Shown: piece after piece, positions 7,517-64,000 of the stretch
Position numbering within the stretch: the stretch's first letter is position 1
Layout of the letters: every line of letters starts with the position of its first letter
Origin: Vicugna vicugna
Taxonomy: Eukaryota
DNA length: 64,000 nucleotides
Reading direction: 5' to 3'
Assembly: GCA_013265495.1 (NCBI GenBank)
Contig: MU058213.1
Location: 1,550,001 to 1,614,000, forward strand
The notes under the pieces: model-generated
Databases searched by the model: none
What the model saw: the letters and a program-made list of their open reading frames with translations, nothing else
Told to the model about the DNA's origin: nothing
Program-made: the position numbers and the translations under genes

Positions 7517-9379
7517 ATATGTAGTCCAGGTGATTTTGCCACAACACAAAAAAATAAGAGTTAAACAGTTAAACAAATATTCATGATAATCCTGAGGTGG
7601 GCTCAAAGTCTTTGTTTATACCAAAGCATAAAGTCATAGATGGTATAAAGGCCTGATTGCTTGTCTCCACAAAAACTCAGGAAACTAGACTTTAAAGGCT
7701 ACATAAAATGGATGGAAGTAGATATGCACACTGGCACATTAGGGACAAAAGTCTCCCAAGACCAGAAGACCAAGCTGGCAGGTGCTTAATTGAGGAGAGT
7801 AATGAGTGTAAAGGTTCTATGTTTGAGTGGGTGTGGGGAGGGATCATCAAGCTGCATTGTGAATATTTTGTGCTGGGAGGTAGATATTTTAATTTAGTTC
7901 CCCCCACCCTGGGAATCCATTCAAAGATTTTAGATAAGGTTCAAAGTTGTTAAGTAACTTGCTTGAGGTCATATGGCTTCAAAATGGAAGAACAACACTG
8001 AGCACTCTGGGCTTCTGCTTCCAGATTTCAGGCTCTTTCCTCCCCACTGTGCTGCTCATGCCCCTGACCAGGCCTGTGCTCTGGCCTCCAGGGACCTGGG
8101 GACTGACACTTTAAAAATGCATGCTAGTGTTTCTCACTTTGTTCATTTGCTTACTTCTTCTCTCCAGGTTAGTTCTTCAGCTTAATTCATTTTGGCTTTG
8201 GAGCTTTTTGTAAAACCAGTTATTCCCCCTACTTGGCTTAAGAAATTGTATTCCATTTGATATTTTCTGACCTTACACTTTGGTGGTGGAATAATAGAGT
8301 ATTTTACACAGGAATGAATTGTGCTGCAGTAGATGAATGTGTGGGAGCTCATAAATCAGCAGTGATCCCTGAGGACCATGGAGGGCCTCCTGGCCCTGGC
8401 CAGCGCTCTTTAGACCTCTTCATGCTAATAAAACAGAGATTTCTCTCTGAAGGGCTCCACCTTTGCAAATGACACTCATAATAAGCTTGGAATAGTATTG
8501 CAGTGATAGGTTGTTTACCTGCTGGTAACTGGTAATTTAGCCAGCGTGAAAGGCCTAATGGTCCATCTTCCCCATTTGGAGAATTGAGGTAGAATTTTGT
8601 CTGTGGATGGCCCTGGAGAGAGCCATGCACAAGTAATGTTTTCCAGGTGTATCCTTGCTGAAAATACAGGTGTGTAAAGACATGTAAGATTATTCATTTC
8701 CCAATTTCTATATGAGTTACTTAGCTTCTATGAAAGAGCTTTGTTTTTTAATTTTTTTGACCATCTTGGTAAGTGGGAAGTGGAACAATTTATCAAAATG
8801 GCAAAGAATAGATTATCCTGATTCCTCTTTCTACTAATTATGACACGGAACAATGAATGCTAGTGGGAGAATAGCATGATCATTTAAAACTTGCTTCTTT
8901 TAGTCTATACAGGGTTAATATGAATATATTGTTATAGAGCTTCAGGGGAAAGGAAGGAAAAGAATGCTACTTGTCTAAACTAAGTGATCACAGATAGGGA
9001 TTTTTAAAAAGTGAAGATGGCATGTTAACACAATGGAGAATTATGGAGATATTAAAATAATTAAGAATATTTTTAGAAATAAGGAAAATTTATGTTATAT
9101 ACATAGTGAAATAAAGCAGGAAACCAAGTGTGTTTTCTGATGCTGGGAGCAATATGGAAATACGAAGATACATAAATCTAAGGCAAGGTACAAGGGCTAC
9201 AAGATTAATTTTGGTCAATGGGATTCAGTGTATGGGGTAATTTGTTTTACTACTAGTAAGAACAATCATATTTTCTAATCAGACAATTTTGGTTTTAATT
9301 CATTCTAACAGTAGGATTCCTATAGGCCTGTATAATCACAGGATAGAATAGTTCAGTGTTTTGGGAGTCCGGAGAAGGA

Positions 9380-9625
9380 TTTCCTTCTGCCTGGACGTCA
9401 TATAATTCACACATGGTCTTATATACATTGAACTTTGGCAGGTAAAGATGGAGCTGAAGATATTTCATATGCAGGAAGAGTACAACTGAGGACCTGGAGT
9501 AGGAAAGTGCTGAATATGAAAATGCATGGAGATGATAAAGTGCTTGGTTTGGCAGAAGTATGGGCATGAAAGGGAATGGGGAGAGGTTCTTAAAGAGTAA
9601 ATTAGGGGCAGATTATGGATGGCTC
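9380..9625 (-). mobile_element. L2 fragment
   Basis: gaggacctggagtaggaaagtg...gagtaaattaggggcagattatgga. Confidence 0.55.
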
Positions 9626-9638
9626 ACTAAGTACTATA

Positions 9639-9977
9639 CAGTCCCCTTGTTTGGCAGGTTCCCTCTTTTGTAAAGATCTGTACAATATCTCAAAATGCAA
9701 ATTACTGAATGTCCTCATCACTTAGCAAGCCAGACTCTTCCAGTGCATAAACTCTGCCCTAGCATTAAGCAAAATACTCCTGAAAATTGCATTATCTCAT
9801 TCTATTCACTTTTTCAGCACATCTGTGAACTGGAGCAAATGCATACTATATGGATGATACATAATCTAGTGGTTAGAATAGGTATTGGAACAGCCATATT
9901 TTTAATTTAAATAACAGTAATATTTTGGTCAAGTAACTTACTCCGATGTTGATTTTACTTTCTCAAGCGGAGGACAG
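9639..9977. mobile_element. Possible old Tc1/mariner (Tigger-type) non-autonomous element
   Basis: TA-flanked imperfect terminal inverted repeats ta|cagtcccc ... ggaggacag|ta. Confidence 0.35.
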
Positions 9978-10039
9978 TATTCCTTTATTCCACTAAGGTG
10001 ACCTTCCCTCAACTTTGCAGATGAACTGTGTCCTGGGCA

Positions 10040-10412
10040 TGTCTCTTTCTCTCCATCATCCCAAATACCTCTTATCCTTTGAAGTCAAGTTCAAATTCCA
10101 TCACCTTCCCAAATCTGCTTGCTCTAGTGCATCTGTGTTGTCTTCTTTGCACATTAGCACATTACTTTTTTTGGGTGGAGGCGGGGGTGTACCACATGGT
10201 TAGTAACTAAATTCTGTCTCACATTGTCCTCCACACTCCATGAGGGTAGGTTTTGTTGTTGTTGTTATTGTTTTTGTATTTTTTGATTTTTTTTTTGACT
10301 CAGGCAGACTGGAAGCACCTCTAGTTTAGGATTCATCTCATAGGTGTCTTATGTATTCTGGGCACACAGCAGGGTATATAATTTGTACATATTAAATACT
10401 GGTCAATTCAAT
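10040..10412 (+). mobile_element. L2 3' region
   Basis: cttatcctttgaagtcaagttcaaattccatcacc...ctccatgagggtagg...ctgggcacacagcagg. Confidence 0.6.
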
Positions 10413-10564
10413 GCTTTCAAACAGTCCTTCTGTCTACAGACATTTTACTGGCCTTTGTAATTTTTAATTTTCTTGTTATAACTCAAATACCCAGAATGGA
10501 GTTGATTAGATTACATAGAGTTCATGGCATGCTGTCAACATTGGCCTGTGCAGTGCTCTGTTGC

Positions 10565-10950
10565 TTTTCATTTTATTTTATAATTTATTTCTCCTGTATT
10601 AATTATCCCCAATATTAAATCCCACACTATTACACAGACAACTATTCTTCAGTTTTTAACACTTGTCATTCTAACTACCTTTCATATGTTTATTTCATAT
10701 GCTTATTTATATGCAGTAGTATATATAGTACTGTTTTGTGTATAGATTTTTAAAATGTACTTAATAACATTGGGCTATACATTTATTCTGTTTCATTTGT
10801 TTTGCTGCTTCATTCATGTAGTTTTTTCTAACTCAAGCTCCTTTCTTCTGCAAAGTATTCATCCTGTATGTATTTACTCATTTCTTTTCCTTTCTTTTTC
10901 TTTTTTTTTTGTGATGGACAGTAAGGTGGCATAGCATGGAGATGAACATC
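10565..10950 (-). mobile_element. Old L1 (L1ME-like) 3' end
   Basis: Degenerate L1 3'UTR: acaactattcttcagtttt...gtatttactcatttc...gtgatggaca...gatgaacatc. Confidence 0.55.
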
Positions 10951-10958
10951 TCCTAGGG

Positions 10959-11134
10959 CAGCACTAAGAGAAAAGGAATACCTGCAGATACTTAAAATTT
11001 TCTATAGCCTCATTAAGAAAATAAAAATAAACAGGTGACATTAACTTCAATAATATACTCTATTTAACCTAGTGTACCTAAATATTTCAAAAGGTAATAT
11101 AAAAACACTATTGAGGTACTTCACATTAATTTTT
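10959..11134 (+). mobile_element. MER33 (hAT-Charlie) 5' half
   Basis: ttaaaattttctatagcctcattaagaaaataaaaataaacaggtgacattaacttcaataatatactctatttaacc. Confidence 0.8.
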
Positions 11135-12412
11135 AAGGCTTTATCTTTAGAAAGCAGGTTAAGGTTTACAACAATATTTCCTATACAATTCATGTCCTCA
11201 CACATGGATAGCTTCTCCATTATCAATATCACTCACCAGAATGGCTCATTTTCAACCAAGAATAACCCTACATTGACATATCATAATCATTCAAAGTTCG
11301 TAGTTTACCTTAGGGTTCACTTTTGGTGTATATCCATCATTATAATATAATACAGAGTGTTTCCACTGCCCTGAAGATCCTCTATGTTCTGCCTATTCAT
11401 CTCTCTTCCTCCCACCCCTCCCAACCCTGCTAATCCCAGCAATTGTTGATCTTTTTATTGTTTCTATAGTTTGCCTTTTCCAGAATATAATATAGTTGAA
11501 ATCATATGGTATGTAACCCTTTTAGATTGGCTTCTTTCACTTAGAAATGTGCATTTAAGTTTCTTTCATGTCTTTTCATCACTTAATAGCTCATTTCTTC
11601 TTAGCACTTAGTAATATTCCATTGCCTTGATGTACACAGTTTGTTTATCCATTCACCTACTAAACTACGTCTTGGTTGCTTCCAAGTTTTGGCAGTTATT
11701 AATAGTGTTGCTGTAAACATATGTGTGAGGGTGTTTGTCTGGACATAAATTTTCAGCTCCGTAGGGTAAATACCAAGGAGCATGATTTCTGGATCACATG
11801 GTAACAGTACATTTAAACTTATAAGAAATGGCCAAACTCATTTCTGAAGTGGCTGTGCCATTTTTGCATTCTCACCAGCAATATCTGAGAGTTCTGTTGT
11901 TCTGACATCCTCGTCAGCACTGTGTTGTCAGTGTTCTGGATTTTGACCATTCTAATAGGCCTGTAGTGGTATCTAGTTATTTTAATTCACATTTCCTTGA
12001 TAACTTACGATGTCAAGCATCTTTTCATATGCTTAGTTGCCATCAATATATCTTCTTTGGTGAAGTATCTGTTAAGATCTTTGGCCCATTTTTAAATTGG
12101 GTTTTTTGTTTTCTTATTGTTGGATTTAAGAGTTCTTTGTGTATTTTGGATAACAATGTTTTATCAGATGTATTTTTTACAAATATTTCCCTCCAGTCTG
12201 TGGCTTGTCTTCTCATTCTCTTGACATTGTCTTTCACAGAGTAAATGTTTTTAATTTTAATGAAATTTTTAGTTTATCAGTTATTTCTTTCATGGGTTGT
12301 GCCTCTGGTATTGTATCTAAGTAGACATTATTATACCCAAGTATATCTTCATTTTTTCCTATGTTATCTTTTAGAAATTGTATAGTTTTATGTTTTCCAT
12401 TTAAGTCTATGT
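11135..12412 (-). mobile_element. L1MC1-like LINE-1 3'UTR plus ORF2 C-terminal remnant
   Basis: 3'UTR ccattatcaatatcactcaccagaatgg...tagtttaccttagggttcact; ORF2-like peptides LLGIYP..TAKTWKQP..EWINKL and KRMRRQATDWREIF. Confidence 0.9.
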
Positions 12413-12414
12413 TT

Positions 12415-12570
12415 GTTATATGAAAGGATGCTCTACTTCACTAATACAGAGAAATTCAAATTCAAATTAAATTCCATTTTATACCTATTAGACTGACAAA
12501 TACTAGAAAATATAAATAGAAGGCCTCATACACTCTGCTGGGAATATTAAACTGGTACAGGCACAATTGG
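12415..12570 (+). mobile_element. Old L1 (L1ME-like) ORF2-end fragment, flipped relative to its partner at 10565-10950
   Basis: atatgaaaggatgctctacttcactaat...ccattttatacctattagactgacaaa...ctcatacactctgctgggaat...aactggtaca. Confidence 0.7.
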
Positions 12571-12691
12571 GAGAGAGACATCCACCTAATCAGTAGAAGT
12601 TTTGGTTGAGTGCTTATTAAGAGAAGAGCTTTCTTCTTGGCTTTAGGAAGGTAGCACTAAACAGGACAGACAAGAAGTCTATGTACTATAT

Positions 12692-12820
12692 CTGCACTGT
12701 CCAATAAAGTAGCCACTAGCCACATGTGACTGTGGAGCACTTGAAATGTGACTAGTCTGAATTGAGACATTCTCTAAGTAAAAATATCACATAAAAGACC
12801 TAGTACAAAAATTAATGTGA
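12692..12820 (-). mobile_element. MER33 3' half (inverted relative to its 5' half)
   Basis: ctgcactgtccaataaagtagccactagccacatgtgactgtggagcacttgaaatgtgactagtctgaattgaga is the reverse complement of the MER33 right end. Confidence 0.85.
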
Positions 12821-13235
12821 CAGAAAAAGCATTTGACAAAATCCAGTATCTACTCATGATAAAAACTCTCAGTAAACTAGGAATAGAAGGGAACATTCTC
12901 AATTTAATGAAGACAATCTACAAATAACCTACAGCTAACATACTTAATGGTAAGAAACCTGAAGCTTTTCCACTAAGATCAGGTCCAAGGCAAAGATGTC
13001 TCCTTTCACCATAATATTCCTTTTCAACATAATATTGGAAATCCTTGCTAATGAAATAAGGCTAGAAAATATATAAATTGAGAAGAAAGACCTAAAACTA
13101 TCAGTTCACATATGACATAAGCGATGTATAAAATCTAAAGAATCAACAAAAAATTCTGAAACTAGTAAGTGATTAATAGCAAGATTGTAGGATACAAGGT
13201 TAATATACAAAATTCATTGCTTTCCTGTATAACAA
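12821..13235 (+). mobile_element. L1 ORF2 reverse-transcriptase fragment (flipped part of the L1MC insertion)
   Basis: gaaaaagcatttgacaaaatccag (EKAFDKIQ) ... ggatacaaggttaatatacaaaa (GYKVNIQ). Confidence 0.9.
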
Positions 13236-13236
13236 T

Positions 13237-13615
13237 TTTTCTATTAAGTTCCCTATTTCCTTTCAGGGGAATGAGTCTTATTTGTTCTTGTTTGTTATCT
13301 GTTCCAAATTTTAGACATTGTGAGATTTTTTTCTACCAGTCATCTGTTGAATATATCAAAGTGTGAACAAAAATCCTTATCTTCCATGTAGTCAGTCCAG
13401 CAATTTTTCCCTTCAAGGCTCTGTTCTTGTTTTGTTGGAAATTCTCCTGTTTTTTTGTTCTTCTTCTTCTTTATTTCACTGAGTTTAGCCTTTTCTTACC
13501 TTTTCCTTTTTTTCTGAGTTTATTCTGTTCCTACTCTTATCTAGATTTTTAAGTTAAATTATTGTCACTAACTTTCATTCCTTCTAGTATGTGTGTGTGT
13601 GTGTGTGTGTGTGTA

Positions 13616-13658
<43 letters not shown>

Positions 13659-14330
13659 AAAAAATTAAGACTCCAAATCTCCTTCTTAGTATTGCATTAA
13701 GTATAAGCAATACACTTTGTCATTTAATGCTTTTATGTACCTCATAATTTCCCTGGTCATTTCTGCTTAATCCTAGAGGTTATTTGATAATATGTATTTA
13801 GATTTCTAGACATAAAAAATAAAGGTGTGATTTTGCTATAAATGTTTTTATTGCATTGTAAACAAAAAACACATTATATATGATGCTCATCTTCAGAATT
13901 TATTGAAGTTTTGTTTGTGACTTACTACATGATTAATTTTGTGAATTTTTATATGTGCTCTTAGTGAAGGTTTATTCTATGCCCATTAGCTATATTGTTT
14001 ATATATTTAGAACAAAATTATTTATCATTTTATTTAATCTTTGATTCATCAGTTCCTGAGGGGTGCAATTTATCTATTTCTCCCTGTAATTCTATCAATT
14101 GTTTTATCAATTTTGAAGATATATTGTTGATAACATATTATTTATGATTATTATATATTCTTGTTATGTTATTCCTTTGCTACTGTATAATGATCATATT
14201 TGTTTCTTACTTAACCTTCTTTGTCATGTAAGTTTTAAATTCCTTTTAAAGATACTATATATTCTTAAAATGTTGACTTTTGATTGATGAAGCTAAATCA
14301 TTTACATTTATAATAACCATGGTTTTTTAA
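13237..14330 (-). mobile_element. Highly degenerate old L1 fragments
   Basis: T-rich L1 antisense pattern: cagaatttattgaagttttgtttgtgactt...attaattttgtgaat...tctccctgtaattctatcaatt. Confidence 0.6.
13589..13658. repeat. Compound (TG)n-(TAAA)n microsatellite
   Basis: Direct inspection. Confidence 0.95.
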
Positions 14331-15194
14331 TTTTTTTTTTTTGGCCATGTGGTCTCATGTTTTCTGTTTGCTATATTTCCTTTGTTTTATTTTGTTTTTA
14401 TTTTTCAACTTCCCCTCACATACCCATTTTTTGATTGTCTAGTGGATTGGTTGAATTTTATTTTGCTGTTTTGAGTTATGTTTCCAAACTTATATGTTGT
14501 GCTCTCTCTCCTCGAAAGTATACATTTATATCAAATGTTGAATTGATTCTCTGATTTTTCTTGCTTCATGTTTCTTATAGTCTTCCTAATCTCTCTTAGA
14601 TTATTAACAATGTATGTTTTTACTTCTTATTCTGTTCTGTGAGTTTTGCTACTTCTGGTACAAGTTAACCCATCCATTGGTTGCCTCTCCTTCATAGCTC
14701 TCATGCTTCTCAGATTCTTGTAATGTTTCCATTTTATCTCATTTTTATCCTTTGGGATGTCAGCTAACTTGATTGACAATGTCCTCCTGGAAGATGCACA
14801 AAAATCTAGGCCATACCCTAGGCTCCTTTGAGCGAGCTTAGGGGTCTAGGTGTACTTTAAGAAGGAGAGCCTCAAGTATTCCAATCTGGGTTAAGCCGCT
14901 TCTTTATTTTTACCCAGGTATTGCTCTTACCTACCAGTAGACCACTGTGAAGGGATGAGATGGAAAAATGGAGGAAGGAAGCTCCCCTGCTGCTCAGACA
15001 GATACATCTGTTTCATCATCAATGTCACTGAGAGAGTGAGCTGTGATTGCTACAGTCTGGTGAGTATATTCAGGCTCATGCAGGTGTCGCTTTTGTTGTT
15101 TTGTTTTCAAGAGTATTTTTTTTTTTTTTTGCCAGTCTCTGAGTCTCTGAACATTTCCTTTTATGCTCTGGTCTTACCCAAGGCAAAATAATGG

Positions 15195-15570
15195 GATTGG
15201 AGCACAGTAGAGTGGAAAAGTAATTAGACTAGGAGTGAGAAAAACTGAATTCTAGTTTTGCATCTCTAGAGAGAAGAATTTCTATAGCAATTAGTCTTCG
15301 AAGATGCTAAGTAATTTTATATTAGTATGTGGTCCTATATTTTCTTTCCTTCTCTCCACCCCGAGATTTACCATGCACATCAAGACTAATGAACCCTGCA
15401 GAAACTTGTTGAACTTATTTCATCTAAGATTTCCCAAAATTATTTGACCTTGAAATCCTGTACCTGAAGACAGCATGTTAGATCCTGGGCGACTATTGTC
15501 TGAGAACGAACTTTAGGAAATATTAGTCTGCAAATTCAATTTTCTCATTTATGAAAATTGGACTATGAAT
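15195..15570 (+). mobile_element. MIR interrupted by a MER103C-like hAT-Charlie element (~15275-15527)
   Basis: MIR head agtagagtggaaaag...gactaggagtgag; gagatttaccatgcacat...tttcccaaaattatttgacc...actttaggaaatatt; MIR resumes ttttctcatttatgaaaattgg. Confidence 0.6.
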
Positions 15571-15939
15571 TATATATTGCATCTGTTGTTTATACTGTGT
15601 CACTTCCCCTGTGTCCATTCAGTGTTTTTTTTTCTTGCTGTGTCCTTGCTCCTTCTGATGTCCCAGTTCTTTAGATTGGAACTGCAATTGGCTTAAGGTG
15701 TTATAACCCACCCCCCACATTACTGGCATATTAATTGAGTGGGGTTCTGAGTTTCAGAAAATTTTCATGATCTGACCCAAAGGAGTGATTTACTAATGGT
15801 GGAATTTCAGGCACTGTGACAAGTGCTTGACAAATGTTTTCTGGATCCATGGCGCTTTCTCATTGTCCCTCCAATAATGTCATCTATCTAGCCACCTCCT
15901 TATAAGACCAGAACTATTTTGCTCTAAGTGGAGGGGCAG

Positions 15940-16380
15940 GGAGTTAGCAGCCTCCAGTTACTGATCCTTTCTTTGAACCACTTAATGGATATAAAAGCTC
16001 AACTTTACAAGAGGAACAGTTGTTATTCCCTCGCCTAGATAATGATTTCTTTATCCAAAATGTCCCCTTTGTATCTTCATGACAATAAAATGGGGAAAAT
16101 GGATTTTTTAAAAAAGTAATTACACAATTGACCATGTGATAAATCCACTTAATAGGCAAGAATTATCTGCTTTGGCTGCCTTCACAGCCCAAATTCACAA
16201 AGTAATTTGCAACTCATTCACTGGCATTCAGCTTTATCTCTTAACATGAGACTTGAAATTAGACAAAGTTATAACAAGCTGCATGTCTTTTAGTGAAAGA
16301 TGGTCACCAGGGCTTATCAAGTGAAGCGATTACCTAGTGTGACACCTAACCTGTTGCTACAATACAGAAGGGAGATCCAC
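15940..16380. promoter_or_regulatory. Candidate conserved non-coding element
   Basis: Repeat-free; TAATTA 16117-16122, several GATA sites, TGACACCT 16340-16347. Confidence 0.4.
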
Positions 16381-16849
16381 CTTCCCTGGGTATGACATCT
16401 CCAACCCTCAGGACCTGGGATCCGTTGCTACTTGGGATCTTGTCATGGCAAGTAGATGGAGGGGGATTGGTAGATAGACTCCTTGGGTCTCATACTTGAG
16501 TGAATTACTTAGCTCTTCCTCATCAGTCAGTCAAGGTTCCATTTAAACCAATGTCTTTTTATTATTGACTGTTTGTGTCCACCTGTTTTTCCTGGTAAAG
16601 GTAAGTTATCATTGTTATCATCATTGTGATGGAGAGAAATCAGGAATTATCAGGAAGCAGGTGACCCAGGTAAAGTAGAGAGATGTTGGAGTCAGAAGGG
16701 GAAGTGCTTCTGAGACAGGAATACATTTTTTGACTAAAGTTATATAGTAGCTGTTAGGAATAGCAGTTCACTGTTCTGTTAATATAGTCTCATCTTCATA
16801 CATTAATTAAATGCATGTTTACAATGACATATTCACACTATGACATATT

Positions 16850-17059
16850 CTGTGAGGAATGCTAGAGCTACTACAGCCCTTCAGGGTTGTCTGGAGTTGT
16901 CTGGGTCAAGATGGTCAGACTTTTAGCCTCTGTTGATCAGTCTTAGGAAGCACAGTCCTGGGAAGGAGTGTGACCTTAAAGCAGGCATTTCTCTGCAGCT
17001 GAGGCTGTCTTCCCTCAGCAGAAGGGGGATCTGGGTGGTATATCACAATATCAACTACA
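16850..17059 (-). mobile_element. LTR16-family (ERVL) LTR 5' fragment
   Basis: Reverse strand reads tgtagttgatattgtgatataccacccagatccccctt...aaggtcacactccttccc...gacaaccctgaagggc. Confidence 0.75.
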
Positions 17060-23329: not shown

Positions 23330-24900
23330 TGCTTAAATTGGTATCTCTTAAACACATGTACCAGGTCTGAGAACTATTTGCTAATTAAAGCACCTGCATT
23401 TTGATTTAAAATGTATGAGGACAAGGGACTTGAAATTTTGTCTCAAGCTGTTCTGGAAATGTAACCATGTAAAAATAAGCATAAATATCATTCAGCTGTA
23501 CCCTGTTAGTTCTTCAGACATTGGAAATATACTCTCAGAAGCATATAAATTATAGGCCTAGTGTTACCTGATTTAATTTGTGATATGCTCATTATATTCA
23601 TCACAACTACTGACTAAAAATGAGTGATGTTCTCAATGCATGGAAATGAGTAATTTTAGTGTTTGTTTCCCCCATAAAATTAATATCTAGTAATAACTCC
23701 AAGGGAACGACACATAAGCAGGTGAACATGTGCTTGCACACGTGCACACACACAATCACCCATAACGACAATGCAGTTCATGCTGCGCTTAAATTGTTTG
23801 CAAAGTATGAAAGCAATTACAGAACAAATTCCGTTCTCAATCTGCCTCTGTAAAAGGGGTCTGGCTCAGAGGTGCTCCAGAGTTATTTATGGCAGGAGCA
23901 AACAGAAGGGCTTAACTATGCAGATAAACTTCTCTTTCTTTTATGTGAGGCAGCAAAATAAACACCTTAACAGTTCATGGTTCCCAGAGTGCATTAGTTA
24001 ATCGGTCCAATATCATTCTAATTCTCCTTGTAGCTCATTGCATTGGAGCCTGTGAGCAGATAAAATGTGTCTTTAGCTACCATGTACTTATTCCAGTGAT
24101 TCTGTGGTTGATGGATGACTTTCTGAATTTTTGAAACAATGCCAGCCCAGGGCCTCGTGGTAGCCGCACAGCGCCCGAGATCTCTTGTTGTGCTTTGGGG
24201 CACGGGGAGGGAGGGAGGGGGCCTTGCAGTACGAGGTCTGGCTCAGTCATTTTCAAAATCAATACTTGCTCTCCAAGCCTTGGATAATTTAGAGAACATA
24301 ATTCAGAATTCTCCCTTTCAGCATGTATCCTCCATCAAAGGGGTGTTTTCATCCAGAGTCAGCACAATGTTTGTATGACCCAGGAAAGCACAGATAAGGT
24401 TAAAAAGAAAGAAAGAAAAAGTACATTTATTCTTTCCTTGTCTCTTTTTCCAAGCATCTTTTGGGCCCAGCGTGTGTGTGTTTGTATGCCTCATTGTGAA
24501 TATTTCTGTTTAGAACAGAGAACCTAAATTATGGTGTCTCATGGTATTACTTCATATTTGAGGCTTTTGGAGGGGGGTGTTTTCCATTATAAACCCTTAG
24601 CCTAAGGGATGTCAGCCTCAGATAATTTATTCCCAGCAGGTCAGATATAGGATACAAAAATTTTAGCCCAAGGGCTGTTAAATCCTGCTTTTCACCTCAT
24701 TTCAGAAGGTGCCATCAAAGTGGTGTTTTGTTGCAGTGATAAAATTCTGTGTTCCTATGCATAGAAGCAATAGGCTTCATTTGCTTAAAAACCAGTATGA
24801 CACCAATTATTTAATCCTTCAGACTCTATTCACTAGATTGCTCTAAAAAAGGAGCCCCAGTGGAAAACATCTTGGTCATTTAAGTACAAAGAGCTTGAGA
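23330..24900. promoter_or_regulatory. Candidate enhancer block
   Basis: No recognisable repeats; four CAGATAA, HOX-type CCATAAAA/TTTATGG, CACGTG, six CpGs in 24155-24235. Confidence 0.45.
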
Positions 24901-29949: not shown

Positions 29950-30800
29950 AATGAATTGGAGATGAAGGTAGATGCATGTCCCTGGCTGGAATGAATGACT
30001 AGGAGCTGAGGAATTGATCATCTAAAATCGGCAGGCCTGAGCTCTACTTGGGAGCATTCCTTGGCTGAACAACAGATAAAATTTACTGGATCTCCATGTG
30101 TGAACCTTTGCAGTCGCACTGTGTACTCCACTTTGATGGATTTAAAGCTGGTCATTATGTTACAGGGCAAGTTGTCGCAGAAATAAAAGCAGGTCGTTTA
30201 AACCGGCCATTTTAATCAGGAGACGATGTTACCCTGTTATCATTAAAGCTTGCCATGTGCCATAGAAAGGGATAGAAACATACTCTTGATTTTTAGGGCT
30301 GATTAAAAAAAAAACTGATTTTGTAGGGAGGTAGAAAGGAAGTAATCAATATATATATATTTTTTTCTTTGCCTCAGTAAGCAAGGTGGGTTTTGTAAAC
30401 CCGCTTTAGGATTGTGTCTCTTCTTTTCACTAAAAGGTTGAAGTAAATTAAAAAGCGAAAAACCTCTGCTCTGTCATTTTTGTTGTTCTGCTGGGCACAG
30501 TGATGTTCCTGGGCTACCTAGCACGTCGAGAACGCCCCCTAGGCGTTGGCATATGTCACAGCAGGAAGAAGCGGCGGCTGATGGATAACCAGCTGCTGTG
30601 TGCCTCTGTCCAAATGCACACACAAAGTCCAGGCAGCAGCCCACAAAATGACTGCTCTCTGTGCCCATGTCTGAGGATGGACTTGCAAGTGTCTCCACTT
30701 GCTACAGCAGTTTCATATAGAGGCAGCTCAGGGTGCCCTTCTTTGTGTACTTAGGACAAAATTGCCATGGAGAGTGTTGTTGAAATTAAAATGAAATCTG
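29950..30800. promoter_or_regulatory. Candidate enhancer block
   Basis: Repeat-free; TGATGGAT at 30134 and 30579; six CpGs in 30521-30577. Confidence 0.4.
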
Positions 30801-38388: not shown

Positions 38389-40229
38389 TAATCATTAAAA
38401 AAAAGGGGGATATAGTCATAAAAACAAAATTTAAAGATATCTGACTGGTGAAGGGCTCTTAATTAGATGGGTCATGGCCAATATAGGTTTATTTATAGTA
38501 GCTATTGGGACTTTTCACAGACTATATTTTATTGACAAGTTCCAGCCCTCAAATTTTGTCTTTGAATAGGTATGTACAACCTTAGAAAAACTGATAATTC
38601 ATGACAAAAATGTTATTTTGCTGATTCACCCATGTTATGATTTAGCTTTCAAAATTTCCTCATTTCAGTTGGCTTTGTGCCATATCTTTATTTAGCATCA
38701 TCAGAGAAATGGAAGTTTTTGGCTAATGAGAGTCTCTAGTAAGTGGGCAGTATCCAGGCAGCTCACTTATGACCAATTCAGGAAGAATTTTAAATACAGT
38801 GAAACTCATGGACACCCTGATGAATGTAATATTGGGTCCTGTTTCAGTGATTCAGAAGGGTGTTGGGGTTATGCTTTAGGGTCATAATTTGAGCAACAGT
38901 TATAACTGCAGTAGAAATATGTGGCTGATGGCTAATAGAAAATTCCCATTAACTGAATGCCAGACTGGACAGGAATAGCTGTACTTCTTTTCACTTACAA
39001 GTTAATAAATAAGTGAATCGGGATTGTAATTAGGCTCACCCTTTTTGCTTTATACTTCTATATTTCTGTCTGTGTCCTGGTTCTTACCCAGGGGTTGTGG
39101 ATGCTATACCAGAGACCAGGGGAGGATTCTCACAGTGGCATGACTTCAGTGTCAGCATAACGGGAATTCTTTCTCTCTGTCCATGTGATCTCCTACGATA
39201 ATTCAGTAATTGCAAATGGAAAAAAACATTATCTTCTATAGACGTATAAGATTTAGTGCTTTAATGCTTATTCAGTGGTTGGGATGCTTAGATGAAATGT
39301 AATACAGCAATACAAAAAAATACTCATTGGAATTTTAGTGGTTTTTTTTGTTTTTGTTTTTTACTAATTTATATTTATTGGCCAAGTCCTGCTGGGACCA
39401 TTAGAATTAGAGTTGTATTATGTTAACATTTAAATCTCTATTTTCAAATGCTTTTGACATGTGGTATATGTTTTCGAGACAGAGGGGATTTCATCTTAAA
39501 TAAAATGTGAGGGAAAAAAACAACCCAATTGCACATCTTTTACTTAAGGGAACCAATGAAATAAGTTAGTGTTTTCAGAGTGTTCTGTACCTCTGTAACT
39601 TAAAAATGATATATTTTTTTAAAAACAGGATTTTGTTAATTTTCACATATCACAACTTTGTATTAGGACTTGGGATATGAAAGCAAAGGAGAATTAGTTA
39701 TTCAGAGGGGGAAACAAAGTCAAACAAAAAGAAATGACCAGTTTGGAATAATTAACGTAGTCACAGATACATCATTTTGCGGATGTCTCAATGTTGATTC
39801 CTAGCATCAGCATAATTTAGTCCCATAGGTTCTTGCTCTGTAGCTTTCCTTGTGGCTATTTCATATGTCATCATTTTAGCTTCTTCTCATTGAATAACCC
39901 CAGCATAAATCCAGGGATCTGGGAAATTTTAGCTTGAATTTAGCCCACCCCAAAGGAAAGGTAGAATATTCTCTCAAGATATTCTTTACATATTTAAATT
40001 CAAAATTTTCCTTTTAGAGCTGCACAGGAAATAGAAAATAAGTCTGTTAGAATCCAAAGACAAGATTTCACCTAAAAATATCTGGATTCTCCGTCTCTTA
40101 AATTCAGGTGCAAGGCTTGTGAGGCAAGGAGGATTGCAAACCTAGACTAGTTATAATTTGTCTGTATGTTTAACATCTTTGCCCTGAAAGACCCCACAGA
40201 GCTGAGCTTACCATTCAAATATATGAGAA

Positions 40230-40870
40230 ATGAGCTCATTCAATTTTAATTGTCATCTTGCTGCATTTAATTATAACGTAACCTGTCTTAACTCATGGCT
40301 GCTGTATAATAAATTCAATTACTTTGGTTTTCCTTTCTATGTATATAAACAAATTTCCAGGGAAAGCAGCGTTGCAAACTTGTGAACAGGGGAAGTGAGT
40401 AACCCTTAATTTTCAAATCATAATCTCATTAGAGCGTGTATGTCTGTGTTTCTGTGCATGTGTGTGTAAAATTTGTTATTCTAAGGAGAAAGGCAACACC
40501 TGTATAATTAGACCACCCTCCTGGGGCCCCGAGGGTGTCCTAATAAAGAAAATTTCATACATTGACGTGCTTCCCATCTCTTCATTTCTTTGTTCTCTCA
40601 CCCTGTTGTTAATAATACCCTGCAGCAAAAAAATGTTTGTGAAGCTAAGGGCTGTCCAGAGAAGAGAAAAGGTCATGATCCCCCTCCTGTGTGTTCATCA
40701 GCAAACGAACACCAATCTGAAAGTAAGAGGATACCTGTCAATATGGAGTGGGCAGGCGGCGGCATACCATCAAATTGAAGGCAGCGAACGCTCACACAGT
40801 TGTACTGAGCGCCACCCTTAACCTAAAATCAATAATCACCAGAGTATTACAATATGAGGTGACTGAATCA
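40230..40870. promoter_or_regulatory. Candidate conserved non-coding element / enhancer
   Basis: Repeat-free; TAATCTCATTA 40421-40431, TAAACAAA 40346-40353, many TAAT cores, five CpGs in 40755-40812. Confidence 0.5.
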
Positions 40871-41774
40871 TAGGGGGTAGTGGTGGAGGGAGAGGATGTA
40901 TGTATGAAGCTTTATAAATGCTAAAAGTAAGGAATGTGGGGCATTTCTCATCATCTTCGGATTTCTAGGATGAGTGTGTTATAGACGATCAAGTGAATAA
41001 AACAGTTGGAGAGCCTAAGGCACCCCATTTTATTAATGTACAGTGTGGCAGGTTTCTTAAACTTCTTCCTCAATGAAATGGTGAAAATCTGCCTGCTTGA
41101 TTTCAGGCCCGAAATTTGAGTGCAGTGAGTAATATTAATTCATGTGTATTTTATTATTATTGCCTTAGACAATTGCATTAACAGTGTATGTGTCATAAGA
41201 TAAATGTCATTCTTATAATAGAGAGGAAAAAAGATCCTTGTAGACTAGATTTTTTTTTAAAAGAATTGAATGAAGAGATACTGTTGTTTACCAGATTGCT
41301 TTAAACAAAGTCCTTTTCCTCTCTTCCCCTGGAACTCTTTGATTTGAGGAGTTGTGTGAGAAAACTCTCCTCTTCCAGGAAGACTTCTGAGATAAGAGAA
41401 GGATTTCCCCATCTGCTGGGTTACTGCCTTAATGCTTACTGCCCTCAGGCTACAGGGATTAATCTAATAGAAAAATTGAATAATACACAGTAAAAAATAT
41501 AGGACTTCAAACAAAAGTTATACAAAACTTGTGTGTTTATAGACTGCTTTCTAAAGGCATATTTGTCACTGCATTGTTTAAGTCCTGAGTAGTATTTCTT
41601 TTGGGAGAGTGTGAACTACAGCAACAAAACTATAAAACATAGTGTTAGAGTAAATGTATTTGGTGATAATGAGTTTTATCTTGCAGTTACTCTTTTTTTT
41701 GCCCTTACCTTTTAGAAGTGGAAATATTTTGCCCTTTCTAGTAATCAACTTGATTTCATTATTTTGTTTTGTTT

Positions 41775-45310: not shown

Positions 45311-45504
45311 AATACAGTGAAATTTATTAATTTATGAAGCTTTTATCTAATACAAATGCATTTGCCATGGTCTTAAATTTTCTCCAGGTCTTCATATTCA
45401 TATGCTATTGCTGTTGTGTTTTTCTAACTCTGAGATACAAGTTTTCTTTGCTGCTAGTAGCTTCATCTGTAACAATACCTATCTTACAAGACCTTCTAAG
45501 GATT

Positions 45505-46185
45505 AAAGGAGTTGATATATAGGAAATTGACCCAAATACATATAAGAATTTAGCAATGGGGGAAAATAAATTATTTAACACATGGTGTTGAAACAGTTGG
45601 ATAGTTATCTGGAGAAAAATTAAATCTTATTCCTACCACATTACTTACATAAATTTCAGATGATTCAAATATTTAATTATATATTAAATTATTCAATTAT
45701 ATACATTTATTTTTATATTTTTTATATTTTATATATATTTATATATATATATATATATAAAAATGAAACCATAAAATACTGGAAGAAAACATAGGTGCCG
45801 TCTTGAGTAAGACTGCCTTTTGTAAGCATAATGCAAACACCATAACAAAAAGGAAAGATTGATAACTACTGACTACAGTAAATTAAAAAGAAAAAAAAAT
45901 CTACCTAGAAAACAAAGCACCATAAAAAAAAGTTAAAGGAAAAATGTCTTTAATTTACATCACAAAGGGCCTGTTTTCTTCTTATATGAATATTTCCTAT
46001 GAATCAGTGAGATAAAGACCAATAATACCCAAAATAAAAACAGACAAATAATACGAACAGGAAAGGAAATACAAATGGCTCATAACATGTCCAGCCTTGT
46101 TCTTAAGGAGAAAGTTGCAAATTAAAACTATAAAAGAGAATTGCAAATTCAAACCATGATGAGTTAATACTCTTGCAATGTTAAC
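45505..46185 (+). mobile_element. Old L1 ORF2 3' fragment with (TA)n at ~45700-45760
   Basis: aaataaattatttaacacatggtgttgaaacagttggatagttatctgg...ccataaaatactggaagaaaacatagg...gaaaggaaatacaaatggc. Confidence 0.8.
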
Positions 46186-46194
46186 AATTCTGTT

Positions 46195-46990
46195 TATCAA
46201 TAGTTCACATTGTTTAATACATGGATGAGCTATATAGATACATAAATATAATCATATAAAATCACAGAGATATATATGACACAAGATCCTACAAAAGATC
46301 ACATACTGCATTTAGTTGTCATGTCTCTTTATTCTTCTTTAGTATAGAAAAATTCCTCTTTTTTTGTCTTTCTTGGCATTTTTGAAGAGTCAAGGCTAAT
46401 TTTCTTTCAGAATGTTTCCACCCAAATCAAACCTGCATAAGAAGATATACTCAGAGAGCTCTCCTTCCCATCCCTATCCCATTTACTTATATTCCCACTT
46501 ATCCCTATAGGTACTGTTTTCATTATTTTCTGATGTATTCTTCTGGTGTTTTATTTATTTATTTATTTTTTTGCAGAAATAAGAGTAGATAGATATGGAT
46601 AGATGATGGATAGATACAGATATATTTCCTCTTTTTTCATATACAGAAGGTAATGTACTACGTATACACTCTTCTGCACCTTGCTTTTAAATTTAATAGC
46701 ATATACATATCAGTTTATAGAGATCTTTATTCTTGTGAATTCCTGTGTAGAAGCAACATAGTTTATTCAACTAGGATCTAGTGATAGACATATAGTTTAA
46801 TTCTAATATTTTGTAGTCCTAATAATGCTGTAATGAATAAATTTATGTTTATGTTGTTGTAAAAGTAGATCTTCAAGAAAACTATCAAGTTTTGAAACAT
46901 GTTAATAATGTTTCCCTCAAGATGCCATTTGTGTGTATTATGATTTTTTTTATAAGCTCCAGATACTGTTGGCAACCAGTATACATAAAT
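46195..46990 (-). mobile_element. L1MC5-like and L1ME-like 3' end fragments
   Basis: gatcacatactgcatttagttgtcatgtctctttattc; ctcttctgcaccttgctttt...aataatgctgtaatgaataa. Confidence 0.65.
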
Positions 46991-52535: not shown

Positions 52536-52687
52536 TAAAGTGAACTAAATTCTAATGGGAAACAACTTGAGATACAATGTTTATCACACAAATCAACAAC
52601 AAAAGCTTGAAAACTGCCCTAGTTTTGTAGATTAGACTTGTTAGAGGCTGACAAGTATTTTTATATACATCTAAAACAATGGACATG

Positions 52688-53036
52688 GTGGAAATAATCA
52701 AGATATAATGTCTTAGCAAATTTGATGGTTATAATGCAATATTATTGTCTATAATCACTGTAATGTGCATTAGATCTCCAGGACTTATTTATCTCCATGT
52801 TGCAAATTTTTACCCTTGAATAACATTTCTCCTATTCCTGCACCCCAACCCCTGTTAACCGCCATTTTACTATTTCTTTTTTTGCGTTTAGCAATAGAAG
52901 TACTAGCTAATGCTACAATGGCAATCATATTGCATTATATAAATATATTAAATATTAAATCAATATGTTGTACACCTTAAACTTATACAATTTTATATGT
53001 CAGATACATTTCAATAAAAAATACATTTAAAAAAAA
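52688..53036 (+). mobile_element. Truncated L1 3' end with 5' inversion (antisense 52688-52892, sense 52893-53036)
   Basis: Antisense tcttagcaaattt...cattagatctccaggacttattt; sense ttgtacaccttaaacttatacaa...AATAAA 53013-53018 plus A-tail; TSD-like flanks. Confidence 0.8.
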
Positions 53037-59870: not shown

Positions 59871-61283
59871 AAGCCTTTTCATTGAGGTTCGCAGAGCTCT
59901 GTGGGTTCTCAAGAATCTATATAGGGACCACCAGCTCAAAACTATTTTCATAATAGTACAAAGATGTTATTTGTTGCTTTTACTCTCCATTCTGTCACAA
60001 GTATTCAGAAATGTGACATCATTGCTGTGATGGAATATGTGCTTATGTATTTTTGTGTTTCCTAGAATTTTCTAAAATTTAAAATTTTCTAGAATTTAGG
60101 TTTAGGGTAAAAATATGAACATTTTTAGAAATTCACTCAGTATGTTTTTAGTACTGTACCCTTGATAGAGAGCTACACCTGCTGTTTATCTGAAACCTCA
60201 TTAATGTCCACTAAACTGTTACTGTGAAGTTTTTATTCTGCCTGTGTGAAAACACAATAAGAAGTATACTTTATTGTCTTGTTTTGCAATATTTTAAAGA
60301 CATATAGTATATTTTAAATATATATGAAATATACTTTAAGACTTTTATATTTTATCTGAAATACTTTAGAATTAAATAATATTTATTTTAAAATAAAAAT
60401 ACATAATTTATTTTATATTTAAGGATAGATTGTTGGCCTAGAAAGTGGGAGATTAGAAAATTGCCTTTTCAGTCCACAAACCATCTCTATCTAAAGATGA
60501 TGAAAAACATAAAACTGACTATAGGGAGTTTTCTGACTTATGGAAGAGAGGAATCTGGGTGTACCTGTAAACAAGAAACAAAAGTATGATGAGAGATATC
60601 TTTCTACTGGCTGTGGTGATGTTAATAATTAACCTTATTGTGTCAAGTACAATAGAACATTTTTGAATAGTATTATGTCATTTTGAGATGAATCTTTCAG
60701 AGTTTAAAGAAAAAGGAATTGAATATTTTAATGTATATATGATGTCTTTAAAAATTAACACTTTTCTTAAGGTTTTTCAAACTGGGAATGAAATAACCAC
60801 AGAAGCATATCATAGGTAAATTATTGCATTGCCTGGAGATGCACACACAACAGCTGAGGCTAACGCTAATCAAGCTGTGTGTACGAAAAATTGGATTAAT
60901 ATCTCATCTGAAGATTTGTACTTTTGCTGTACAAAATGTTGAGTCTATATTTGTTTGTATCCATCTGACATCAGCGACAACAAATCATCAAAGCTTTTCT
61001 TTTATGTGAAACCTTGGCAACAAACACAAGTGGTGCTGAAATATTCAGAAGTATTGAGTAACTTTTTTTGAATCTCATGGTTTATCTTGGAACAACTGAG
61101 TTGACATTTACACTAATGGTGAAAGGCAGTGGTGGATAAAACTCCAGGCGTCTTCCCACACATGAAAGTAGTACCACCAGTGTTTTGGTAGTCATTGTAA
61201 TCTCTACCATGCGTTTACATTTTTTTAAAAAGCCAGAGTCATTTAAAAATGTCCTTGGTAAAGTTGTAAAATGATTAATGTTA

Positions 61284-61400
61284 TTTTTTATTTTTTTTTA
61301 ATTGAAATATAGTCAGTTATAATGTGTCAATTTCTGGTGTACAGCATAATGTCCCAGTCATGCATATATTTACATGTATTTGTTTTCATATTTTTCGTTA
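61284..61400 (-). mobile_element. Short young L1 3' end (camelid-L1-like) with TSD
   Basis: T-tail then attgaaatatagtcagttataatgtgtcaatttctggtgtacagcataatgtcccagtcat; TSD gtaaaatgattaatgtta 61266-61283 / gtaaaattattaatttta 61401-61418. Confidence 0.8.
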
Positions 61401-62004
61401 GTAAAATTATTAATTTTACAAATCTTAACCCTTGAGTCCATCCATATCTTCATAATGTGCTCTATACTATAGTTGGAAGTATGCACTGAGCCCTTCTGCT
61501 TCATTCTGAAACATGATCATTGCCTCAAAGAAAAGCACTTGTATGATTATTTGAGTTGGGAACTCATCTAGGCATCTTTTCATGGAACATTATTTTTACT
61601 TGAAAAAAATGACTGGGCAAACTATGAGAATTCAGGCTTCACTGTTTGATAGACATTTTCTCTAAAATGAATGAAGTGAATCTGTCACATCAAGGAAGAA
61701 TATGACAAAAGTTAACCTTCACTTGGCTTTAGCAGTGTTAGTAATTTACCTTACTGTGTCATGTGCAACAGAGCATTTTTTAATAGTATTGTGGTACCAA
61801 GTGTGGTGTCATTTTGAGACCACCTTTCAGAGTTTAAAGGAAAAGGAATTGAATATTTTAAATATAGATGTGTTAAGCTCAAGATATTTGTCACCAATAA
61901 GATAAAATTCAAGTTTTCAAACACAGATTAGAATTTTGAAAAGTTCAAATCGATCACCATGAGCTTGAGGACTTCCCAGTTTTTATAGTAAGAAGTGTAA
62001 TTTA

Positions 62005-62300
62005 TTTAAAAGTCTAGCTTATTGAGGCATATTTTACATATAGCAAAATTTATCCTTTTAGGTATGTAGCTGTCTAAGTTTTGGGAAATATATAATCATG
62101 TATTTTCTACCACAAATAGGATATAGAGTATTTCCAACAATCCAGAAAGTCTCCAGCTATTCCTTTAAAGTCAATTCTCTCTTCCCACTCCCAGCCCCTG
62201 ATCTGGTTTTTGTTCCTATACTTTGGCCTTTTCCAGAATATCATATAATACATAGCTTTTTGGGTCTGAGCTCATTTGCTTATCATAATATTTTTGAGAT
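62005..62300 (-). mobile_element. L1MB/MC-class 3' end inserted in Charlie1
   Basis: gcttattgaggcatattttacatatagcaaaatttatcc...cccactcccagcccctg...gccttttccagaatatcatataa. Confidence 0.8.
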
Positions 62301-64000
62301 GAAAGTGGCTTTTTGATATTATATAATAAAATGTGTCAACATTTGATATACATGGCTTGGTGAAGCAATATTTTCCAAATGACCAATCCTGTATAGGTAA
62401 AAAATCCACCCCAAGTGCAAGATAAACCCATGGGTTTTAATGTACTGAGTAGGAAAAGTTCATTGATAAGGTTTCAGATCCCACACTGCACTGTTACTTG
62501 TTGAGTGTAAGTGTAGTATCAGAGAATAGTATTCCTGATTATCTGAAAATGCTATTCAAATATTACTCTCTTCAACTACATACATATCTATGTGGGGCTG
62601 GATATTCTTCATATACTTCAGCCAGAATAACATAATCATTCAGATTGAATGCAGAAGCAGATATGAGAATCCAACTGTCTTCTACTAAACCAGACATTAA
62701 TGAGGTTTGCAAATTTGCAAAACAATGACAGATACCTTGCTAAATTTGGGGTGGAGAAGTATTTATTTTTATAGATAGATGTCATTCATGTTAATATATA
62801 ATATATTCATCATTATTTTAAATAAGTTGATAAATATTTTTACTACTTTTTTTCTAATACAGTAAATATCAAAGTTGTATAATCCACACAAACAAATGAT
62901 CTTTGGGTCCTTGATAATTTTTAAGAGAGTAAAAGATCCTGAGACCAAAAAGTTTGCAGGTTGCTGACTTAGGTGGACTGAAAGGTGCCACTGGAGAATG
63001 AGAATAACTGGACAGGGAAGAAGTTGGGAAGCAAATTTCACCTCTGATTCCTTGGCTCGTAGTAAGATCTAAATATATGGTTATGGAATAAACGAAAGTC
63101 AGATCATAAGCCAATGTAGTCAGGTTAATAAATTCAAGAGAATGAAGTCTCTGAAATGAAGAGATTATTTTATCAAGGACCCATCATCCTCACTCAGAAG
63201 GGTTTGGCTGGTTGGTCCAGCTGCTAACATAGTTGATCTGGAAGAGACTAAGGGTGAGCTGTGATTGTGAGCTGTGGCTGATGGTTGGGTTGAGAGACTA
63301 AGCAAACCCTTCAGATACAATGAAATGTCAAATGCTAATAGAGGGGCAGAGCCCAAGGTCTTTGCAGAAGTGACCAGATTTAGGGAGTCAACTGGGAAGG
63401 ATGGAAGGAGTTTGTGTAATGGAAGGACCAGAGTGACTTGGCCAGCTATTGTTTGGACCAGCAGATCTGGATTTGATCTCAGTCAAATAAGGCTTCTTCT
63501 GAGGTTAACATGGTCCTAAATTAGGTTCTACAACAACAGAATCTCAGTGGGATCCCATGGGGAGTAGAGAGATGGCAAATGGAGGTTGGTGGTGGTGCTG
63601 TTGGAGGAGAGACTGGACAGTGTTGGTTAGGAGTTTTCTCCTCCTATTTCCCCTCTCATTTTACCTTTGGTCTAACTCTAGAGGCTGAGTTTTATTGAGT
63701 CTTTGATCTTTACCAGAGGCCAGGAGTCAGGTTTGGTTGGGGTGAAAGGTGGGATGGGACTGGATAGAGTTTCTCAGTGAAAATGAGCTGATCTTGTGCC
63801 GCCAGCTCCAGCCTCCTGACTTGCTCTTACACACTATACACTTACTGCTCAGTTATTATCCTAGGAGACACTTGATTTATTCTGGAGCAGAGAATTTTAA
63901 ATTGTATGCCCAGTGCCACTGTCAAAATCACATCAACGTCTTTTTTATCCTAAAAATGCAATAAACTTTCCTCTAAATTTGTTTTGTTAAAATAAAGGGC

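Follow-up and report, generated by a model that had tools for sequence, protein, structure and literature searches.

Within a repeat-rich stretch of Vicugna vicugna DNA of 64,000 nucleotides (the window), two parts of what appears to be one LINE-1 (L1) element lie on opposite strands, and a 14-bp sequence that stands at one boundary of the element returns as its reverse complement at the other, raising the question of what turned part of the region around, and whether this happened when the L1 arrived or afterwards. The repeat anatomy indicates that about 820 bp of repeat DNA, comprising the front end of a dead LINE-1 together with neighbouring DNA, has very probably been flipped. The core reading, that an L1 inserted with a direct target-site duplication (TSD) and that its 5' part and about 400 bp of flank were later flipped, holds. 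The flip of the original prediction stands, and deletions at its ends belong to its description, so that the event is unbalanced, an inversion with loss of ~655 bp of L1 at one end and, tentatively, of ~57 bp of host DNA at the other. The features on which this reading is based are collected in Table 1.

Table 1. Features of the flipped region and its surroundings (positions are those of the window)
Feature	Position	Strand	Basis or remark
Inverted segment, 823 bp (contents: older L1 piece, 120-bp stretch, transposon-like 3' half, TSD copy 2, younger L1 5' piece)	12413..13235		Re-inversion gives direct TSD and uniform skew
TSD copy 1, 14 bp	11121..11134	+	At 3' end of younger L1
TSD copy 2, inverted	12807..12820	-	Abuts 5' truncation point of younger L1; profile match begins at 12821
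Left 8-mer	12413..12420	+	12413-12417 probably copied from end of 5' L1 piece; 12418-12420 older L1
Right 8-mer	13228..13235	+	Native end of 5' L1 piece; translation, and profile to 13234
Younger L1 5' piece, ORF2 RT residues ~601 to 745/746	12821..13236	+	Profile and protein comparison
Younger L1 3' piece, ORF2 residue ~965 to end, and 3' UTR	11135..12411	-	Protein and profile comparison
Target element, 5' half	10959..11134	+	Presumed from resemblance
Target element, 3' half, inverted	12692..12820	-	Presumed from resemblance
120-bp stretch inside inversion, L2-like by eye	12571..12691		Weak match
Older host L1 piece, ORF2 from about residue 1091	12418..12570	+	Alignment and profile
Older L1, probable continuation outside inversion	13235..13580	-	AT skew -0.43, anchored alignments
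Older L1, probable 3' part	10565..10950	-	AT skew -0.31; alignments not significant or borderline

When 12413-13235 is reverse-complemented in silico, the two TSD copies become direct repeats at 11121 and 12828, with 1,693 bp between them, and the strand skew of the region becomes one-sided: between 12,000 and 13,599 every one of the 16 bins of 100 bp is T-rich in the re-inverted sequence, and in the sequence as assembled 6 of the 8 between 12,400 and 13,199 are A-rich. The interior of the segment is itself reversed, in that two independent L1 pieces read on the + strand inside it (12418-12570 and 12821-13234). The flipped segment of ~820 bp that had been predicted, and the direct 14-bp TSD expected from re-inversion, are thus confirmed.

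The 14-mer TCACATTAATTTTT (11121-11134) recurs as its exact reverse complement at 12807-12820, and the match extends no further, so that both the exactness and the ends of the pair predicted for the two junctions between L1 and target element (MER33 in that prediction) were verified. It is the sole exact inverted match of at least 12 bp among 158 matches of at least 8 bp found between 10,500 and 13,800. By itself the length of the match is only suggestive; in Markov simulations an inverted match of at least 14 bp arose somewhere in 13 of 200 cases. It is strong evidence nonetheless, because the right copy ends one base before the start of L1 homology and because the chance of finding a copy so anchored at the L1 boundary is 1e-4 to 6e-4 in 3,000 sites. 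The chance that a 14-bp TSD stays intact is 0.10 at 8% divergence and 0.03 at 12%; at the level of decay seen at conserved columns of the two L1 pieces, its survival here is lucky, yet not odd.

Identification of the younger L1 rests on ORF2 homology. Its 5' piece is matched by an L1 reverse-transcriptase (RT) profile at 12821-13234 on the + strand (169.8 bits, a score reached by 0 of 100 shuffles); it begins at human ORF2p residue ~601, and its end translates as A-F-L-Y-N-N, corresponding to the A740-F-L-Y-T-N-N746 stretch of ORF2p, which is read as AFLYTNN in 34 of the 53 printed reference matches. On the - strand the 3' piece places residue 966 at 12407 (E 0.013) and residue 1071 at 12091, with homology from ~12411 leftwards. 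The two pieces are similarly decayed by a measure that is biased low (4 of 76 conserved columns changed in the 5' piece, which also carries 9 indels, vs 8 of 99 in the 3' piece), and they follow each other in ORF2 order without overlap. Absent between them are ORF2 residues ~747-964 (~217-219 codons, about 650-660 bp), in agreement with the predicted loss of several hundred bp of ORF2; with the lost part included, the original length of the element comes to about 2.35 kb. The opposite orientations proposed for the RT part (+) and the C-terminal part of ORF2 (-) are likewise borne out, and the subfamily, which we take to be L1MC with a 3' end at 11135, is named from resemblance. Among 150 representative proteins there was no usable full-length mammalian ORF2p, and the long ones shared about 35-43% identity with the query.

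An older L1, the host of these insertions in the original prediction, had also been said to switch strand, and here one side of the claim is firm. Aligned with the matching region of the younger L1, the sequence from 12418 is equalled by 0 of 300 shuffles on the + strand and by 119 of 300 on the - strand; from 12418 onward a DNA profile matches on + with E 3.7e-7, and protein profiles match 12418-12570 in two + frames (E 0.001 and 0.003). The other side, on - at 10565-10950, gave no clear alignment (29 and 153, and 309 and 84, per 1,000 shuffles scored as high), and its name and extent as older L1 are presumed from resemblance. Both outer stretches are T-rich (AT skew -0.31 at 10565-10950 and -0.43 at 13235-13580), and the wider flanks are T-rich also (-0.13, -0.18). 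For the outer host piece on the - strand, free local alignment remained at chance level (78 of 200 and 164 of 300 shuffles), a protein profile gave E 0.6 and a DNA profile no match; one reference was equalled by 1 of 200 shuffles, and a 19-bp match that runs in the opposite orientation by 1 of 300. When the alignment was anchored, position 13235 was placed 57 bp upstream of the start of the flipped host piece in 4 of 4 alignments, with 171, 68, 51 and 33 of 1,000 shuffles equal or better, and because so many shuffles match the anchored score the host deletion of ~57 bp at the outer breakpoint is a tentative reading. Farther out, 13690-14500 is T-rich (skew -0.29) and by eye resembles the L1 endonuclease region on the - strand; searches with 14042-14326 (-) gave no L1 match. 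If the endonuclease reading of 13690-14500 were true, the host L1 would have lost much of its middle.

The target element is transposon-like, and we take its parts at 10959-11134 and 12692-12820 to be the halves of a MER33 copy. In the re-inverted sequence the halves join to 291 bp once one TSD is removed, and the first 7 bases of the half at 12692 match those at 10959 in 6 of 7 positions, the agreement to be expected of decayed terminal repeats once one half has been turned round. Flanks of 8 bp on either side of the joined element share 3 of 8 bases and thus show no transposon TSD; the shared bases of 10951-10958 and 12684-12691 are only TAG, at positions 4-6, which is not significant, although a hAT-type target site would presumably look like this after decay. 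When reference copies were sought for the transposon or for mammalian L1 DNA, viral contigs returned 0 matches, plasmids none and metagenome contigs one, limited to a 25-bp stretch (L001:597-620, which agrees with 24 of 25 bases of the transposon-like end at 12709-12733 and with nothing else, probably by chance). Between the older L1 piece and the transposon-like half, the stretch 12571-12691 matched 1 of 7 in-window L2-like references at a level reached by 1 of 200 shuffles; a profile of 11 L2-like pieces found nothing in it, and in the re-inverted sequence a search for L2 continuing across the transposon found no match.

At the breakpoints themselves, TTGTTATA at 12413-12420 is the exact reverse complement of 13228-13235, and again the match extends no further. 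On its own this 8-mer is unremarkable; inverted matches of at least 8 bp are not enriched between 10,500 and 13,800 (the 158 seen compare with 163 expected), and a match of at least 8 between two 31-nt windows occurs in 96 of 5,000 shuffles and in 87 of 5,000 random window pairs. Of the inverted breakpoint repeats proposed originally, the sequence match therefore stands and the notion of a pre-existing repeat falls, the 8 bp being better read as mostly a product of the event. A single further base, 12412, lies between the homology of the 3' piece, which ends near 12411, and the left 8-mer. In the homologous place the younger L1 has AAGC before the three host bases (AAG CAT in the window's own homologue), and K or R is found at that codon in 33 of the 34 printed references. 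On the simplest reading, the left 8-mer would combine 3 shared bp with 5 bases for which the end of the RT piece served as template. The five bases could also be in part drifted host sequence, TGT TAT being one change from CGT and one from CAT. The outer junction would share AT (13235-13236), provided both placements are right. From the junction strings, the copied bases stop at most one base from the boundary between the flipped piece and the large deletion, and because of this coincidence one event with several switches is favoured over a staggered cut followed by a separate deletion. A hairpin already present between the two ends was considered and rejected, since without the copied bases 73 of 500 other 20-mers pair equally well; recombination between long inverted repeats was likewise rejected, the longest exact match between the breakpoints being 8 bp, 3 of them within host homology.

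The sequence of events that we consider likely is an ordinary insertion by target-primed reverse transcription and then, separately, a flip during break repair or at a stalled fork with template switches at short homologies. A 5'-truncated L1 of about 2.35 kb would have inserted with its direct 14-bp TSD, and the later event would have flipped about 820 bp. Read in the sense of the L1, synthesis would have left the outer host DNA for the end of the 5' L1 piece at the two shared bases AT (13235-13236) and traversed that piece in reverse, followed by the TSD and 400 bp of flank; it would then have switched back at three shared bases (TAT), copied five more bases, giving rise to the 8-bp inverted repeat, and finally jumped ~655 bp onward into the 3' L1 piece. 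Such a course would leave an inversion that has lost DNA at both ends and gained a short templated insertion. Template switches are described in PMC7954356 as often generating perfect inverted repeats. That the flip came after the insertion had been asserted in the original prediction, and a later flip is favoured because the flipped TSD meets the RT piece by its 5' end, which is the geometry of a finished ordinary 5' junction; the claim is probably right and short of certain, because L1 integration can itself invert flanking DNA and leave a TSD-like overlap. The accompanying premise, that flanking DNA is never inverted by L1 insertion, is contradicted by bioRxiv 2024.12.14.628481, whose text describes an inversion of 917 bp of genomic DNA where an L1 had inserted in an experimental clone, and four such inversions from tumours. 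Three of the four show a TSD-like overlap of 4-15 bp, and in one the inverted piece holds genomic DNA as well as L1, with a TSD-like overlap of 15 bp.

A flip during L1 integration itself is accordingly the rival that has to be weighed most closely, and we hold it to be unlikely, with a minor share of the probability. In one version the non-priming end, already joined to the L1 5' piece, would be resected or broken, fold back and join the first-strand product in inverted orientation, at a cost of ~655 bp of L1; in the other a second primer 400 bp away would copy the RNA, and the freed flank would be trapped between two cDNAs. The outward signature would be that of the class described in bioRxiv 2024.12.14.628481, a reciprocal-end inversion with a TSD-like overlap of 4-15 bp; one breakpoint lies in the new L1 and the other ~400 bp from the target site, within resection range; and L1 insertions with short templated pieces of local origin are on record (22 cases in bioRxiv 2024.08.27.596794). 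The tumour class is rare as reported (4 cases among more than 6,000 events in 10 genomes, only 1 of the 4 with a flip that includes L1), but so is the alternative. The geometry also speaks against integration: a twin-primed piece flipped in this way would be expected to share the sense of the 3' piece and to meet the TSD by its 3' end, whereas the observed 5' piece is antisense and meets the TSD by its 5' end. The gap of ~655 bp is also far above the typical one, and the intact 8-mer, whose chance of staying intact is 0.26 at 8% divergence and 0.13 at 12%, mildly favours a younger flip.

The remaining explanations are each improbable. Two staggered double-strand cuts, with an overhang of 8-9 bases filled in to make the inverted repeat and the ~655-bp deletion arising separately, would account for one property of the 8-mer, since a filled-in staggered cut leaves an inverted duplication of the sequence of one side and the duplication here is native to one side only; the independent deletion would have had to begin no more than one base from where the duplicated bases end, and the other breakpoint shows (tentatively) loss and not duplication, so that this course is quite improbable. 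That the arrangement is an assembly artefact or a chimeric read is, on internal grounds, very improbable: both breakpoints do sit in repeats, but these are old and diverged and by self-BLAST have no close copy in the window, the 64 kb contain zero N, and the junctions are precise to the base, with two deletions and a short copied stretch. For 8001-17000, between 0.89 and 0.95 of 982 words are present in 19 of the 24 listed sequencing runs (7 studies, 3 organism labels), a presence that is silent on orientation, as junction words make up less than 1% of the word set. Least credible of all is that nothing was inverted and that separate L1 and transposon fragments of mixed orientation happen to be accompanied by a chance 14-bp match. 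Simulations of this AT-rich region do produce such inverted matches, at the rate given above, and the transposon halves are identified by presumed resemblance; against this stand the anchoring of the 14-mer one base before L1 homology, the ORF2 order and similar decay of the two L1 pieces, and the repair of TSD and skew together by a single flip. An ordinary insertion followed by a separate flip thus continues to be preferred.

Several known systems resemble the arrangement in part. Twin priming, as set out in bioRxiv 2024.08.27.596794, joins the TSD to the 3' end of the inverted piece and leaves the L1 pieces touching, with a median internal deletion of 14.5 bp, and in PMC12016303 the cDNA ends lie within 20 bp in 132 of 287 insertions. 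The present element is like a twin-primed, 5'-inverted L1 in having a 5' piece antisense to the 3' piece and an internal gap; unlike such an element, it has TSD copies that are reverse complements of each other, about 400 bp of flank (12413-12820) between its pieces and a gap of ~655 bp vs that median of 14.5 bp, and plain twin priming was rejected on the TSD orientation and the intervening flank. With the events of bioRxiv 2024.12.14.628481, as far as its text describes them, it shares an inversion of about 1 kb beside an L1, on the side away from the poly(A), with the TSD-like overlap inverted, and with one of those cases the inclusion of L1 in the flip. Those events are somatic or from cell culture and are known to coincide with insertion, whereas the present one is read from a single genome and is undated; junction homology is 2-3 bp here vs 14 bp in clone H7, and the L1 piece here meets the TSD by its 5' end, the L1 orientation in PD0270a not being visible from the text of that report.

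Outside mobile-element insertions the closest relatives are human germline inversions. Among 733 of these in a cohort of 1,019 people, PMC12350158 counts 12 with two flanking deletions and 159 with one, and its account ascribes such inversions to replication-linked, MMBIR-like processes. The present flip is like them, as they are described there, in its sub-kb to kb size, in having no long inverted repeat at the breakpoints and in the loss of DNA at both ends (one deletion here being tentative); it differs in being an old event in another mammal, deduced from the repeat anatomy of one sequence without an un-flipped allele. Short-range template-switch inversions and microinversions in apes (PMC7954356, PMC8755829), in the descriptions given, likewise have two switches around a reverse-copied stretch and a short inverted repeat at the edge, and so, by the account in PMC11724301, do the templated insertions that arise by fold-back at yeast DNA breaks. 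In PMC8755829 the microinversions are reported as 17-33 nt and mostly clean, whereas here there are ~820 bp, a third jump and a large loss.

Elsewhere in the window further old repeats were seen. Two stretches, 60620-60748 and 61736-61874, form a direct duplication of ~130-140 bp with 76% identity, within a region of about 59,900-62,900 that we take, from its resemblance, to be an old DNA-transposon fossil and that is interrupted by L1 3' ends. One short L1 3' end on the - strand, at 61288-61400 and presumably of camelid type, has a best direct flank match of 7 bp (61266, 61401) and no clear TSD. By eye, 52640-53035 holds two L1 3'-type pieces, first on - and then on +, the second ending in an A-rich tail; this is a possible twin-primed or nested insertion, with no flanking direct repeat longer than 7 bp. 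Old C-terminal fragments of L1 ORF2 lie on the + strand at 45480-46900 (three short profile matches, with 0 of 100 shuffles as high) and are followed by a T-rich, L1-like stretch apparently on the - strand, a possible second orientation switch. The stretches 23800-24400, 30000-30700 and 40200-40900 do not look like repeats and by eye resemble conserved non-coding elements.

No exon was recognised within the 64-kb window and no gene in the flipped stretch, and the locus looks like a neutral scar in dead repeats. As a DNA-repair scar the flip is of an ordinary and familiar kind; it adds one more case to an established class and shows no sign of a function. In the literature searched, which had most subscription journals outside its reach, no earlier description of the present structure was found, nor any paper on an inverted target site duplication with retrotransposon inversion or on germline inversion of genomic DNA at L1 integration.

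As a single locus the flip matters little; once dated, it could serve as a rare phylogenetic marker. Its method may be of wider use, in that an inverted TSD combined with a split L1 makes a small inversion readable from one genome. Should the flip have been made at integration after all, which we think doubtful, it would represent an inherited germline case, of great age, in which flanking DNA was inverted by L1 integration, a process that was found described only in tumours and cultured cells, and inverted TSDs would then be a searchable fossil signature by which such events could be counted across mammalian genomes. A screen for inverted TSDs, with checks of the orthologues, would reveal whether flanking DNA is inverted by L1 integration in the germline too, as it is reported to be in tumours and cell lines.
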